Assembly (NCBI GenBank): GCA_030148725.1
Contig: JASBSU010000003.1
Location: 31,553-95,552 of the forward strand
Length of the DNA: 64,000 nt
Direction: 5' to 3'
DNA from: Hyphomicrobium sp.
Lineage (GTDB): Bacteria; Pseudomonadota; Alphaproteobacteria; Rhizobiales; Hyphomicrobiaceae
Made by a program: the position numbers and the translations under genes. The notes beneath the pieces are model-generated. The model saw nothing but the letters and a program-made list of their open reading frames with translations, was not told the DNA's origin and ran no database searches. Each line of letters opens with the position of its first letter. Position 1 is the first letter of the stretch. Below, piece by piece: positions 2,317 through 51,731 of the stretch.

Positions 2317-3096
2317 GTGCTGCTGCTGCGCTCGCTCATATTCGCGCTGGTCTTCTACCTTAGCACCGCCATCTTCGTGGTAGGCGGCTCCTTCCTGCTA
2401 TTTGGCCCTCGCCGCTGGGCCATGGCCGGCCTCAAGGCCCACGCCATCGTTTCGCTTTGGCTGCTGCGCTGGATCGTCGGCACCCGCATGGAGGTTCGCG
2501 GCCGGGAGAAGCTCCCCCTGCCGCCCTACCTCGTCGCTTCGAAGCACCAGTCGGCCTGGGACACCTTCGCCCTGATCCCCATTTTCTCCGACCCGGCGAT
2601 GGTCATGAAATGGGAGCTGTCTCTGATCCCCTTCTACGGCTGGTTCTCGCGCAAGTTCGAGCACGTGTTCGTGCGCCGCGACCGTGGCCCCAGCGCCTTG
2701 CGCGATCTCATTCGCGACGCCAAGGACCGCGCTGCCGCCGGGCGCGAGGTTGTTATCTTCCCCGAGGGCACGCGCAAATCGCCGGGCGCCGAGCCGGACT
2801 ACAAATCGGGCGCCGTGGCGCTCTATGAAGGGCTCGGGCTTCCCTGCGTACCCGTGGCGCTGAACTCAGGGCTCTATTGGCCGCGCCGCAAGCTGCTGCG
2901 CTATCCGGGCACCATCATCGTCGAGATCCTCGACCCTCTGCCGCCCGGCCTGCCGCGCCGCGAATTCAAGCACCTGCTTCAAGATCGCATTGAGACCGCG
3001 GCGGCCCGCCTGATCCTGGAAGCGGAGCAGGCACCGAACCCGCCGCCGATCGCGCCCGAAGCGCTCGCGCGGGCCCAAGACGCCGCGTCGCGCTGA
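2317..3096 (+). CDS. plsC: 1-acyl-sn-glycerol-3-phosphate acyltransferase
   Basis: KHQSAWD (HX4D) and IFPEGTR acyltransferase motifs. Confidence 0.88.
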   Translation: MLLLRSLIFALVFYLSTAIFVVGGSFLLFGPRRWAMAGLKAHAIVSLWLLRWIVGTRMEVRGREKLPLPPYLVASKHQSAWDTFALIPIFSDPAMVMKWELSLIPFYGWFSRKFEHVFVRRDRGPSALRDLIRDAKDRAAAGREVVIFPEGTRKSPGAEPDYKSGAVALYEGLGLPCVPVALNSGLYWPRRKLLRYPGTIIVEILDPLPPGLPRREFKHLLQDRIETAAARLILEAEQAPNPPPIAPEALARAQDAASR

Positions 3097-3227
3097 CAGA
3101 CCTGTCAGTGCTCACATCTGGCTTCAGAAGAGATGATTTAGTGCATTGGATTTTAACGGATTAATTAATTTAAACAGTTGCCTGTTCTTTTCGATAAAAA
3201 TCTAGGAAACGAACATCGCCAAAACGT

Positions 3228-3253
3228 AAAAGCGCCGCCCTGACGGGCGGCGC
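3228..3253 (-). terminator. Intrinsic terminator for the minus-strand small gene
   Basis: Perfect 9-bp stem GCGCCGCCC-tgac-GGGCGGCGC (3232-3253); read on the minus strand it is followed by TTTT. Confidence 0.75.
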
Positions 3254-3311
3254 ATTCACTTCCTGCACCGCAATAATTTCGAGATGCAGAAAACTGAACC
3301 TAATTCGACAA

Positions 3312-3461
3312 CTACTTTTTCTTCGCCGGAGCCTTAGCCTTTGCGGCAGCCGCCTTGGGCTTGGCACGCTCCACGACGGCCGTCTTCGCCTTGGCGGAGG
3401 CAGGAGCAACGAACTTACCTGTAGAGGCCTTTGCGGCGCTCTTGGTGGAAGCTTTGGCCAT
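3312..3461 (-). CDS. 49-aa Lys/Ala-rich histone-tail-like small protein
   Basis: MAKASTKSAAKASTGKFVAPASAKAKTAVVERAKPKAAAAKAKAPAKKK; GAGG 6 nt upstream of ATG; AAG/GCC/GCT codons; terminator about 60 nt downstream. Confidence 0.72.
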   Translation of the reverse strand: MAKASTKSAAKASTGKFVAPASAKAKTAVVERAKPKAAAAKAKAPAKKK

Positions 3462-3657
3462 GTCGAACCTCATCGATCTGGATTTCGAACGCAAGCGTCG
3501 CAACCACTCGAAAACGCACGAACAGCACGAACCTGAGATGTGGTGCTGCGAGTGCGGCTGTATCACATTCTATCAATGGTCCACCGGCGCCATTCAGTGC
3601 GCAGCGTGCAAAGTTGTGCAGAACGGCTTCGAGTTGCCTTCGCTGCCATCGACATGA
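3460..3657 (+). CDS. 65-aa zinc-ribbon-like small protein
   Basis: MSNLIDLDFERKRR...WCCECGCITFY...IQCAACK; two Cys knuckles; mostly G/C third positions; GGTGGAAG upstream as a weak RBS. Confidence 0.6.
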   Translation: MSNLIDLDFERKRRNHSKTHEQHEPEMWCCECGCITFYQWSTGAIQCAACKVVQNGFELPSLPST

Positions 3658-3693
3658 CATGCGCGTTCTGACAGTACGGGCCCTCCTCGGACA

Positions 3694-3720
3694 GAACATA
3701 AAAGGAATATAGAGAGAACA
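3694..3720. promoter_or_regulatory. Tandem alphaproteobacterial LexA (SOS)-like boxes
   Basis: GAACAtaaaagGAATAtagagaGAACA: three half-sites at 11-bp spacing, matching GAAC-N7-GAAC with one mismatch per box. Confidence 0.6.
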
Positions 3721-3725
3721 TTTGG

Positions 3726-3754
3726 TTGACAGGCGGGCGCGACAACCCCATATT
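3726..3754 (+). promoter_or_regulatory. sigma70 promoter of nrdJ
   Basis: TTGACA (3726-3731), 17-nt spacer, CATATT (3749-3754); ATG follows at 3781. Confidence 0.7.
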
Positions 3755-3758
3755 GAGG
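3743..3758 (+). promoter_or_regulatory. Putative NrdR box overlapping the -10 element
   Basis: caaCcccATaTtGagg partially matches acaCwAtATaTwGtgt; located where NrdR boxes usually sit at nrd promoters. Confidence 0.45.
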
Positions 3759-3780
3759 GGCCTAGTGCAGGATAGTGCCC

Positions 3781-6156
3781 ATGCCCGGAGCGTCACCCCC
3801 AGACGAGTTCGATGCCCCCATCTCCCGCCAGATATGGGACCTGAAGTATCGCCTTCGGAGCCCTGACGGCGCAGCAATTGATTCGACGCTCGACGACACC
3901 TTCTGGCGCATCGCCCACGCCGCTGCCGCCAACGAGAAAGGCGGCAAGCGGGCAAAGGATCGTTGGGCCACCCGCTTCCATGACGCCATGTCCGATCTCG
4001 GCTTCCTTCCCGCAGGCCGCATCTTGGCTGGCGCCGGGACGGGCCGCGCTGTCACCCTCTTCAACTGCTTCGTGCTCGGCAAGATCGAGGACGACCTCGG
4101 CGCCATCTTCGACGGCGTGAAGGATGCCGCTCTGACCATGCAGCAGGGTGGCGGCATCGGTCATGACTTCTCGACCTTGCGCCCCAAAGGCGCCCGCGTT
4201 GCCTCGATCGGCGCCGACGCGTCTGGCCCGGTCAGCTTCATGAATGTCTGGGACGCGATGTGCCGGACCATCATGTCGGCAGGCAGCCGCCGCGGCGCCA
4301 TGATGGGCGTTCTGCGTTGCGACCACCCGGACATCGACGAGTTCATCGCCGCCAAGGCCGACGCGACCCAGCTGCGCAATTTCAATCTGTCGGTGCTCGT
4401 CACGGACGATTTCCTGGCCGCGGTGCGCGAGGACCGGCCGTGGGACCTCAAGTTCGGCGGCAAGGTCTACCGCACGCTCCCCGCCCGCGCGCTGTGGGAG
4501 CGCATCATGCGCGCGACGTACGATTACGCCGAGCCCGGCGTCGTCTTCATCGACCGCATCAACGCACGTAACAACCTGCGTTACTGCGAAGAGATCCACG
4601 CGACCAACCCGTGCGGCGAGCAGCCGTTGCCGCCCTTCGGGGCGTGTCTGCTCGGGTCGATCAACCTCGCAAGCCTGGTCGAGCACCCATTCACGAACAG
4701 CGCGCATATCGACGTTGAAAAGCTCAAGGAGCGCGTGAAGGTCGCCGTGCGCTTCCTCGACAACATCATCGACATCTCGAACTATCCGCTGCCCGCCCAG
4801 CGGCAGGAGGCGTTGAGCAAGCGTCGCATCGGCCTCGGGATCACCGGCCTCGCCGACGCTCTGATCTTTTCCGGCCTCCGCTACGGAACGCCCGAGGCTG
4901 CAAAGCTTTCGGCGTCTTGGATGACTGTCATCCAGAACGCGGCCTACCTCGCCAGCGCCGAACTCGCTGCCGAGAAGGGCGCATTCCCGCTCTTCGACGC
5001 GGAACGCTTCCTCACCAGCCCCAACGTCGCGCGGCTCGACGCGGAGGTCCGCGCGGCGATTGCCGAGCACGGCATCCGCAACGGTTGCCTCACCTCCATC
5101 GCTCCGACCGGCACGATCTCGCTGCTGGCCGGCAATGTCGCCTCGGGCATCGAGCCGGTGTTCGACTATCGCTATTCACGTCGCCTGCTTGCCCGTGACG
5201 GGACCAATCACGAGGAAATCGTCGAGGATTATGCCCACGCCAAGTTCCGCCGCGCGTTCGGCGCGGCAGCGCCGCTTCCCGAAACGTTCGTGCGCGCCGG
5301 CGATCTGACGCCCGCCCAGCATCTGGCCATGCAGGCCGCGCTGCAGCCCTACGTGGACAGCGCCATCTCCAAGACCATCAACTGTCCCGAAGGGATTTCC
5401 TTCGAGGACTTCAACAATGTCTATCTCGAAGCACATGCGCTCGGCCTCAAAGGCTGCACCACGTATCGCCCGAACCCGGTCACGGGCGCGGTGCTGCAGT
5501 CCCTGGCGGAGCCCGCGCCCCCGCACGCAGGGGAAAAAGCAGCTGCAAAGCCCTCGCCCGCGGACCCGGTTCTTCCTGTTGCCGGACGCGATGGTGTCGT
5601 GTTCCTCGCCCCGCCGCTCGAGCGTGATGGGATCCTCGCCGGCTTCACCTACAAGCTCAAATGGCCCGGCAGCGACCACGCCATCTACGTCACCATCAAC
5701 GACATCGAGCAGGGCGGACGACGCCGTCCGTTCGAGATCTTCATCAACACCCGCAACCTGGAGCACTACGCCTGGACCGTCGCGCTGACGCGCATGATCA
5801 GCGCCGTCTTCCGTCGCGGCGGTGACGTCACCTTCGTCGCCGAGGAATTGAAAGCCGTGTTCGACCCGCAGGGCGGCCACTGGGTTGCCGGACGCTATGT
5901 GCCGAGCCTCCTCGCCGCCATCGGCGAGGTCATCGAGACGCACATGCGCCGCACCGGCTTCCTGCAGTCGGGCGAAGCACAGCTGGAACTCGCCGACGTG
6001 CAACAGCGGCAGCACGACGCAGCCGCACCCGGCGCCAGCGGACTCGCGCGCGCCGGTGTGAGACCGAAGCTTTGCCCCCGCTGCTCCTCCGCCGACTACG
6101 TGCAACGCGAAGGCTGCTGGTCCTGTAATGTCTGTGGATTTTCGCGCTGCGGGTGA
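3781..6156 (+). CDS. nrdJ: Adenosylcobalamin-dependent class II ribonucleotide reductase with C-terminal TSCPD and Zn-ribbon region
   Basis: PAGRIL, TLFNCFV, GGGIG, TNPCGEQPL (thiyl radical Cys), SIAPTGTISL, KGCTTYRP; terminal CPRC..CxxCGFSRCG. Confidence 0.95.
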   Translation: MPGASPPDEFDAPISRQIWDLKYRLRSPDGAAIDSTLDDTFWRIAHAAAANEKGGKRAKDRWATRFHDAMSDLGFLPAGRILAGAGTGRAVTLFNCFVLGKIEDDLGAIFDGVKDAALTMQQGGGIGHDFSTLRPKGARVASIGADASGPVSFMNVWDAMCRTIMSAGSRRGAMMGVLRCDHPDIDEFIAAKADATQLRNFNLSVLVTDDFLAAVREDRPWDLKFGGKVYRTLPARALWERIMRATYDYAEPGVVFIDRINARNNLRYCEEIHATNPCGEQPLPPFGACLLGSINLASLVEHPFTNSAHIDVEKLKERVKVAVRFLDNIIDISNYPLPAQRQEALSKRRIGLGITGLADALIFSGLRYGTPEAAKLSASWMTVIQNAAYLASAELAAEKGAFPLFDAERFLTSPNVARLDAEVRAAIAEHGIRNGCLTSIAPTGTISLLAGNVASGIEPVFDYRYSRRLLARDGTNHEEIVEDYAHAKFRRAFGAAAPLPETFVRAGDLTPAQHLAMQAALQPYVDSAISKTINCPEGISFEDFNNVYLEAHALGLKGCTTYRPNPVTGAVLQSLAEPAPPHAGEKAAAKPSPADPVLPVAGRDGVVFLAPPLERDGILAGFTYKLKWPGSDHAIYVTINDIEQGGRRRPFEIFINTRNLEHYAWTVALTRMISAVFRRGGDVTFVAEELKAVFDPQGGHWVAGRYVPSLLAAIGEVIETHMRRTGFLQSGEAQLELADVQQRQHDAAAPGASGLARAGVRPKLCPRCSSADYVQREGCWSCNVCGFSRCG

Positions 6157-49925: not shown

Positions 49926-51731
49926 ATGCCTGCGTTGCTCGCCTCCCTGCGCCGCCCGATCTCCTGCCTCGTCACCTTCGCCATCCTAGCCGGACAGGTC
50001 GCTCCGTCCGCGGCAGAGCCTCTTTCCAAAGCCGAGTACGAAGCGTGCCAGGCGCGCGATGAGGGCGCCTTCCGCACCGCCATTCAAGGCATCTCGGTTC
50101 GGGCTCTGAAGGCCGGCATCGCCAATGTCGACTACCGCACCGCCGTCGGCGACGAGTGGCGCCGCACCGGCATGGACGAGATCATCGATAAGCGCGTCGA
50201 CCTTGCCGTCGAGGAGGTGCGCAAGGAGACGAGCTGGGCCAACCTGCTTCAATCGCTCGCGAGCCAGCAAAAGGCCCAGGAGCTGGCGACCGCCGTCGCC
50301 GAGCGCGTCTATCGCTCGGACGCCATGAAGACCTCGCTGGAACAGCTTGCTGTCGGGGTCGGCCGCGAGATCGGCCGCCAGATGGAGTTCGCCAGCCAGG
50401 ACGCCACCGAGCCGACAGTCGCCTGCCTCAAGGCTTTCGTCGGCGCCCGTTACGGTGAAACCGCAGCCCGCGCCGTCGTTGGGGATGCCAGCAAGGGGAT
50501 CACCGTCGACCCGAACAAGGGCGCCGCGGAGATGTCATCGAGCGCCGTCCTCAAGGAATCAAGCGGCGGCATCGCGGGCGCCGCCGTCCTCCTGATGCGC
50601 CGCCAGCTCTCTAATATGGCGGCGCGCGTCGGCCAGCGCGTCGTGGGGTCCGTCCTCGCCCGCCTCGTATCGGTGGTGGCCGGCGGCGTCGGACTGGTGC
50701 TCATCGCCAAGGATATCTGGGATCTGCGCAACGGCGTCCTCCCGATCATCGCCACCGAGATGAAGTCCACCGAGAACAAGGACAAGGTGAAGGAGGAATT
50801 GGCCAAGACCTTCTCCGAACAGATCTCGGCCCACATCGAAGAGATCGGCGCCGCCACCGCAGACCGCGTCATCGAGATCTGGCGGGATTTCCGCAGTGCC
50901 CATGCGGAAGCTCTAGGCCTTGCTGAGCGCAACCCGAAATTCAAAGCCTTCCTGGACGGCCTGAACCCGACGACGATGCCGCGGCTGGACGAGGTGGTCG
51001 CCCTGACGCTCGCCGCCGAAGGCGAGGCTGGCCTCCTGCGCCGCCTCGATGACGGCACCCTCAATACCGCCGTTAATACTCTTCCGCCGCCGGCCATGGA
51101 TATCGCCCGCGAGATGCGTTCGATCGACACCGGGCTTAAGTGGTCGGCCCTCGCCGGCCAGGATTTGCCGAAGGTCGTCGAACTCAGCCTCTATCGGCGC
51201 ACGACGCCCGACCAGATCAGCCGGCCGACGTTGCAGCGTCTCCTCGCCCTGAACGATCAGCTTGCGATCGTCCGACTTGCGAGCGTCGACCAAGCCGCCC
51301 GCGACACGCTGCTCGAGCTGAACGATTCCGACTTGAAGAACCTTGCGCGCAGCCTCACCGAGAGCGAGCTGTCGAGCCTGTCCCGTTATCTGACCGGCCT
51401 CAAGACCGCCCCCCGGGAGCAGGTGCTCCGCGCCGTAGCCGCCAACCCGGCGGCGATCCACGCCCTGGCATCCGAGCGCGTGCGCACCGCTATCGTCGCC
51501 AGCACCGACCAGGCGGCTGCCGTTACCATGATGCTCCGCACCGGCGGCAACCTCGATGTCGCGGCGATCGGAGAGGACCTGCGCCTCGTGGCCGACGGAC
51601 GCGTCAGCCCCATCCTGATCTGGGAGAAGCACCCCGGCGTCGTGGTTGCCGCGGCCTTGCTTACCCTCATTCTGCTTCTGCTTATGCGTCGTCTGCTGTT
51701 CGCCGGATCTCGCCGCCGCGCTTCCGCCTGA
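49926..51731 (+). CDS. Hypothetical 601-aa helical protein with signal peptide and C-terminal TM anchor
   Basis: Long ORF with strong codon bias and GAAGGA RBS; no family recognised. Confidence 0.75.
   Translation: MPALLASLRRPISCLVTFAILAGQVAPSAAEPLSKAEYEACQARDEGAFRTAIQGISVRALKAGIANVDYRTAVGDEWRRTGMDEIIDKRVDLAVEEVRKETSWANLLQSLASQQKAQELATAVAERVYRSDAMKTSLEQLAVGVGREIGRQMEFASQDATEPTVACLKAFVGARYGETAARAVVGDASKGITVDPNKGAAEMSSSAVLKESSGGIAGAAVLLMRRQLSNMAARVGQRVVGSVLARLVSVVAGGVGLVLIAKDIWDLRNGVLPIIATEMKSTENKDKVKEELAKTFSEQISAHIEEIGAATADRVIEIWRDFRSAHAEALGLAERNPKFKAFLDGLNPTTMPRLDEVVALTLAAEGEAGLLRRLDDGTLNTAVNTLPPPAMDIAREMRSIDTGLKWSALAGQDLPKVVELSLYRRTTPDQISRPTLQRLLALNDQLAIVRLASVDQAARDTLLELNDSDLKNLARSLTESELSSLSRYLTGLKTAPREQVLRAVAANPAAIHALASERVRTAIVASTDQAAAVTMMLRTGGNLDVAAIGEDLRLVADGRVSPILIWEKHPGVVVAAALLTLILLLLMRRLLFAGSRRRASA

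Follow-up and report, generated by a model that had tools for sequence, protein, structure and literature searches.

A predicted LexA operator of three direct repeats abuts the promoter of an accessory class II ribonucleotide reductase gene in Hyphomicrobium

The window, by which we mean the whole 64,000-nucleotide stretch of DNA that was analyzed, is a segment (contig C26:31553-95552) of a 96%-complete Hyphomicrobium draft genome of 3.84 Mb and 63.6% GC. It carries a ribonucleotide reductase gene of the short nrdJ type, preceded by a compact array of direct repeats and a promoter (Table 1). The 791-amino-acid product is a class II, B12-dependent ribonucleotide reductase (TIGR02504 NrdJ_Z, 575.6 bits against a cut-off of 400). 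A spacer of 123 nucleotides separates its ATG from the upstream open reading frame (ORF) for a 65-amino-acid zinc-ribbon protein. That ORF, on the plus strand, and an ORF for a 49-amino-acid Lys/Ala-rich protein, on the minus strand, have back-to-back starts on a CATG at 3460-3463. An Rfam scan of positions 3000-4300 returned chance-level matches only, with no riboswitch and no small RNA.

Table 1. Coordinates of the short nrdJ gene and of the features upstream of it, as positions in the window
Feature	Positions	Strand	Remarks
Zinc-ribbon ORF, 65 aa	3461..3657	+	Upstream context only, outside the regulatory element
Three-repeat direct array, 11-bp spacing	3694..3719	+	Two overlapping alphaproteobacterial LexA-type boxes, predicted
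Repeat 1, GAACAT	3694..3699	+	GAAC at least 90% conserved in genus alignment
Repeat 2, GAATAT	3705..3710	+	Degenerate middle repeat; GAAC, GAAT, GATC or GTCC in relatives
Candidate partner NrdR box, AGAGAACATTTGGTTG	3713..3728		Only candidate, at canonical 16-bp linker; rejected
Repeat 3, GAACATT	3716..3722	+	Most conserved element; at least 90% in genus
-35 hexamer, TTGACA	3726..3731	+	From promoter scan; TTGACn kept across families
NrdR-box look-alike, ACCCCATATTGAGGGG	3745..3760		Over the -10; judged non-functional as NrdR box
-10 hexamer, CATATT	3749..3754	+	17-nt spacer from the -35
Shine-Dalgarno sequence, AGGA	3769..3772	+	8 nt 5' of ATG; GCAGGA conserved in genus alignment
Short-type class II ribonucleotide reductase gene nrdJ	3781..6156	+	791 aa, C-terminal Cys-rich zinc ribbon; ATG at 3781

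A preliminary description of this DNA had placed GAAC, GAAT, and GAAC tetramers at an exact 11-bp spacing (3694, 3705, and 3716), with the array ending 6 nucleotides (3720-3725) upstream of a perfect TTGACA, and the sequence bears out both statements. The sigma-70 promoter that it had proposed stands as well: TTGACA-17 nt-CATATT has 10/12 matches, and it is the sole promoter-like site that the promoter scan found on either strand between 3200 and 4000, where 0.2 would be expected from shuffled sequences. Taking the predicted transcription start near 3761, the array lies at about -68 to -42. A fourth in-register repeat, in the form of the TGAC inside the -35 hexamer, was considered and rejected, as the distance from the repeats to the -35 varies between 4 and 6 nucleotides. 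After the -10, a GGGCC around the predicted start (3757-3762) is about 70% conserved in the genus, and in certain other families the -10 lies between the arms of an inverted G/C repeat, as in GGCGGGA...TCCCGCC at loci L081 and L111.

Pairs of the plain form GAAC-N7-GAAC are not rare in this genome (90 observed versus 86 expected), and the weight of the case therefore falls on the triple arrangement, its AT-rich context, the matrix score, and conservation. The pattern GAAC-N7-GAAY-N7-GAAC has two copies in the 3.84 Mb, the other one inside the murG coding sequence, and the hexamer version of the triple array occurs once, with about 0 expected. The triple array exceeds chance expectation. Each of the two overlapping boxes at nrdJ carries one C-to-T mismatch; relatives with three perfect GAAC repeats exist.

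Direct repeats of GAAC or GTTC with a 7-nucleotide spacer are the experimentally defined LexA box of Alphaproteobacteria, GTTC-N7-GTTC being the Caulobacter form (PMC9578287, PMC12700426). The genome studied here has rGAACA-N6-rGAACA boxes in front of ssb, the rSAM_link_UDG repair gene, comM/yifB, and imuA-like and sbcD-like genes, and its recA has the box as GAAC-N7-GTAC. We built a 22-nucleotide LexA matrix from six same-genome sites and two congeneric lexA operators, which together provide only 10 training sites, leaving nrdJ out. Scanned with this matrix, the two adjacent nrdJ boxes scored 17.5 and 16.5 bits and ranked 13 and 17 among 7.7 million genome positions. In four congeners the lexA promoter has the sequence TTGCGGAAC-N7-GAAC-N7-GTAC, whose three tetramers follow the same 11-bp layout as those at nrdJ. 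The LexA box beside comM/yifB is itself duplicated: about 25 bp, ACGCGCAAGAACATTTT[A/G]GGAACA, recur at 50121 and 51168 (contig C41:50095-51195) and flank a low-GC insert of roughly 1 kb with a minus-strand ORF, which looks like an insertion with target duplication.

The lexA gene was not found in the 96%-complete draft, which gave no TIGR00498 match. It is present in all 12 of the congeners searched, and its neighbors in four congeners likewise have no match in this assembly. Since the flanks are missing too, an assembly gap, probably an unassembled segment, is the simplest explanation, if an unproven one, and the well-kept SOS boxes argue for the presence of LexA in the organism.

In an alignment of 34 distinct Hyphomicrobium sequences, conservation of at least 90% peaks at GAACA in repeat 1, GAA in repeat 2, GGAACATT in repeat 3, TTGAC, CCCATATT, and the Shine-Dalgarno sequence, and DNA upstream of 3690 is 30-50% conserved. 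The GAAC tetramers are conserved at their fixed 11-bp spacing and the AT-rich spacers vary. GAACATT, at 3716-3722, is the word at this repeat in more than 90% of the aligned genus sequences, and many further families share it; it is a longer conserved word than is found at the genome's other LexA boxes (GAACACG, GAACAAA, and others). We then scored short-nrdJ upstream regions, 82 unique ones in all, from Hyphomicrobiaceae, Devosia, and other lineages for sites within 150 nucleotides of the start. The LexA matrix gave 12 bits or more in 66 of the 82, versus 0.85% of shuffles. Where the score was 14 bits or more (54 sites), the site always lay on the coding strand, and nearly always 50-95 nucleotides before the start. 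The promoter TTGACn-17 nt-TAnnnT, preceded at 4-6 nucleotides by GAAC, recurs in 52 unique loci from several families. Beyond these lineages, 18 of 30 other alphaproteobacterial families, represented by one genome each, reach 12 bits or more (0.8% of shuffles), and the sampled Rhodobacterales short-nrdJ loci have no LexA-type box. The predicted link between the LexA box and short nrdJ is class-wide, the sampled Rhodobacterales excepted. In some relatives the short nrdJ itself is a frame of 1175-1223 amino acids or a split match (G025:C95, G028:C23; L099, L105, L108, and L111), which suggests intein-sized insertions.

These distributions bear on a reading in which the repeats are not a LexA site but an UP-element-like AT-rich region, or the target of another direct-repeat regulator such as a response regulator. 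An AT-rich region in a 64% GC genome, at the location of an UP element, would suit it; so would the GAACATT extension, conserved beyond the genome's other LexA boxes, and the absence of lexA from the assembly. The alignment, however, singles out tetramers at a fixed distance and lets the AT-rich spacers drift, and the motif equals the recA, ssb, imuA-like, comM, and congeneric lexA operators as well as the direct repeat that experiment has defined for the class (PMC9578287, PMC12700426). We therefore consider a non-LexA identity of the repeats very improbable. Same-genome SOS boxes, matrix rank, the layout of congeneric lexA, and conservation at nrdJ orthologues together argue for two overlapping LexA boxes of the GAAC-N7-GAAC type, as the preliminary description had held.

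The short gene is not alone. A class-wide NrdJ search found a second class II reductase gene in this genome, a long nrdJ of 1253 amino acids (contig C27:172297-176058, plus strand), which rules out the window gene as the sole reductase; class I small-subunit and class III reductase families are absent from the genome. Because a second nrdJ exists, we dropped the argument that an essential gene could be only partially repressed. The long gene occurs in 28 of 31 relatives, with 88-96% identity within the genus; the short gene occurs in only 6 of the 17 genera of the order, with 76-86% identity within the genus, and of 30 sampled genomes with the short gene, 29 carry both. Short nrdJ is thus an accessory paralogue, and long nrdJ is the more widespread and more conserved of the two.

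The leaders of the two paralogues differ in the regulatory sites that they carry. Operators for NrdR consist of two 16-bp boxes with a linker of 15-17 bp, both boxes being necessary and C4 and G13 being critical by mutagenesis (PMC13584703, PMC12051234). We took as key positions C4, A6, A8, T9, T11, and G13, with an AT-rich stretch between C4 and G13. The leader of long nrdJ (about 250 nucleotides; 172030-172296) has TATCTACATCTAGTAT at C27:172044, with 6/6 key positions, followed by a 16-nucleotide linker and a weak second box, the whole operator spanning C27:172044-172091. The same arrangement of a strong and a weak box, with minor variants of the strong one, precedes long nrdJ in most congeners, and in other families of the order the long gene has textbook tandem boxes, for example, ACACAACATGTAGGTG-17 nt-CCACAATATATTGATG. 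NrdR is encoded in the genome (C27:159723-160163; TIGR00244, 162.9 bits, above the cut-off). Just upstream of the NrdR box in the long-nrdJ leader lies a DnaA-box-like TTATCCAAC. Only 1 of 27 long nrdJ loci has an upstream site that reaches 12 bits in the LexA matrix, and the long nrdJ of this genome has no LexA box.

The preliminary description had read an NrdR-like box over the -10 of the short gene and, from it, dual control by dNTP status through NrdR and by DNA damage through LexA. A 16-mer does cover the -10, at 3745-3760, with 5/6 key positions (C4, A6, A8, T9, and G13; T11 is G), 6/8 A/T, and 6/6 key positions in some congeners. Scoring speaks against its being a functional NrdR box. 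With a matrix whose training set came solely from other families of the order, that is, from long-nrdJ operators, it reaches 3.9 bits and the candidate partner at 3713-3728 reaches 6.7 bits, versus 17.3 bits for the long-nrdJ box; the median best single box in the genus is 7.2 bits for the short gene versus 17.3 bits for the long gene. In a wider NrdR matrix the long-nrdJ box ranks first in the genome, and the two short-nrdJ 16-mers score 2.5 bits (3745-3760), with 5,500 genome positions as good or better, and 4.9 bits (3713-3728), with 2,039 as good or better. The left half of 3745-3760 is conserved because it falls on the -10 hexamer; the right half varies among congeners.

For NrdR to act at short nrdJ, 3713-3728 and 3745-3760 would have to form the operator, so that damage and dNTP status would both act on one promoter, with LexA on the array. 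The partner has 5/6 key positions and sits at the canonical linker length, a heuristic matrix based on the consensus ranks the pair third in the genome, the regulator is encoded, and the long-nrdJ operator of the genus likewise has a weak second box. Yet the partner has G at position 4; none of the congeneric sequences inspected has C4 there and most are without G13 as well, and both boxes are needed (PMC13584703, PMC12051234). Nor does the key-position count discriminate, as 97 genome pairs reach the same 10/12 as the nrdJ pair. We also set aside an alternative register that takes the cytosine of GAAC as C4: its linker is 13 bp long and its score is negative. With background scores in the operator-trained matrices and a partner without C4, we rejected the pair as an NrdR operator and consider dual control of short nrdJ unlikely, though with a weak residual possibility, since in this genus a poor second box is seen at the long gene too. 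The case cautions that one -10-like 16-mer is too little for the assignment of an NrdR box. A LexA-type site on the short paralogue and an NrdR-type site on the long one point to split rather than stacked control.

A further proposal was that a TATATT on the minus strand inside the array might serve as a -10 and that LexA could set a back-to-back switch. The hexamer is present, at 3711-3706, and it recurs in relatives whose middle repeat is GAATATA; the promoter role assigned to it fell away. The promoter scan found no minus-strand promoter-like site in 3200-4000, the position of the -35 reads GCCTGT-like, and TATATT is found only with a GAATATA middle repeat and is absent where that repeat is GAACTT, GATCAT, or GAATTT. 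Moreover, the array is kept in many lineages in which no zinc-ribbon gene lies within about 1.5 kb upstream. A LexA-gated antisense transcript running through the zinc-ribbon gene toward the basic-protein gene has, in our judgment, next to no probability, and the switch was abandoned. By its distribution, the predicted operator is an element of nrdJ and not of the small-gene pair.

We think it likely, from this body of comparative evidence, that the array is a LexA operator abutting, from upstream, the strong sigma-70 promoter of the accessory short nrdJ and that its repression is lifted by DNA damage. In undamaged cells, LexA would occupy about -68 to -42 and transcription would be partly repressed. 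The bound repressor would block the contacts that RNA polymerase makes at and just upstream of the -35 through sigma region 4 and the alpha C-terminal domains, the latter placed, in this model, on the AT-rich repeat spacers. Upon DNA damage, RecA-stimulated cleavage of LexA would release the promoter, and the freed short nrdJ would provide more dNTPs for repair and translesion synthesis. We infer all three elements of this model, namely LexA binding, repression as the direction of its effect, and the contacts through which it would act. The perfect -35 fits repression, as a promoter with such a hexamer should need no activator. A third repeat could offer two binding registers or a place for two dimers, and the triple layout shared with lexA suggests, by analogy, that it gives high occupancy.

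The position of the operator bears on the direction of the effect. The recA box of the same genome lies within the core promoter, from -25 to -11 (a promoter called under relaxed rules), a perfect TTGACA precedes the box of the repair radical-SAM gene by 15 nucleotides, and the imuA-like and sbcD-like boxes end 8-11 nucleotides before the start codon. The nrdJ operator lies upstream of the -35, outside the core promoter, a geometry that differs from that of the other SOS genes and is conserved across families; the contrast is drawn from the recA promoter call and from distances to start codons, the other SOS genes having given no promoter call. An operator upstream of the -35 makes full repression less certain and activation conceivable. 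The main alternative for the direction of effect is accordingly that LexA on the array acts positively, like a class I activator at -68 to -42, in which case damage would lower expression. Activators usually bind upstream of the -35, positive regulation by LexA has been reported in M. tuberculosis, and the recA gene of Rhodobacter sphaeroides offers a precedent, LexA being said to both optimize and repress its transcription (reportedly the finding of Tapias et al. in 2002). Against activation, a perfect -35 and 10/12 matches are atypical of an activator-dependent promoter, the last repeat is 6 nucleotides from the -35, so that steric overlap is likely, and it would be physiologically odd for an accessory reductase to supply fewer dNTPs once DNA is damaged. 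We regard activation as decidedly unlikely and retain repression as the preferred direction.

Set beside the SOS box known from Rhodobacter, Rhizobium/Sinorhizobium, and Caulobacter, the nrdJ array has the same tetramer, the same 7-nucleotide spacer, and the same direct-repeat symmetry; it shares its motif with the canonical SOS genes of this genome, and its triple form is that of the congeners' lexA autoregulatory operator. It differs in lying upstream of the -35 and in having three repeats, the middle one degenerate, and a class II reductase is not found among the known alphaproteobacterial LexA targets in the searchable literature. With the Rhodobacter sphaeroides recA promoter it reportedly shares more than one GAAC-type repeat and a LexA that perhaps does not simply occlude the core promoter; that promoter serves another gene, and all of the nrdJ repeats lie upstream of the -35. 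The likeness to tandem-box NrdR operators (PMC13584703, PMC12051234) extends to a 16-mer over the -10, a second 16-mer 16 bp upstream, and an encoded NrdR; it ends at a partner without C4 and at background scores for both 16-mers, the true operator of this genome being the one at C27:172044-172091.

Repair and translesion polymerases depend on dNTP pools that are set by ribonucleotide reductase, and the damage induction of nrdAB in E. coli is independent of LexA. The searchable literature holds no report of LexA control of nrdJ, or of direct control by LexA of any reductase, in Alphaproteobacteria, although an earlier description in older regulon papers is possible. Short nrdJ is, on this evidence, a new predicted member of a known LexA regulon, with an unusual operator position. 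We incline, by a modest degree, to a broader picture that joins the two paralogues: in many Alphaproteobacteria, a long housekeeping NrdJ would be under NrdR, which senses dNTP/ATP, and a short NrdJ would be a dedicated SOS enzyme held by LexA, through an operator just upstream of the -35 with three repeats in Hyphomicrobium and two elsewhere. Were this so, damage would add a second, NrdR-blind source of dNTPs, and short nrdJ would be an old, class-wide, and undescribed member of the alphaproteobacterial SOS regulon. If confirmed, it would bring a metabolic enzyme into the SOS core of Alphaproteobacteria and would account for the frequency with which genomes keep two nrdJ paralogues (29 of the 30 sampled genomes with the short form), and the short-nrdJ promoter would provide a natural case for LexA action from upstream of the -35.
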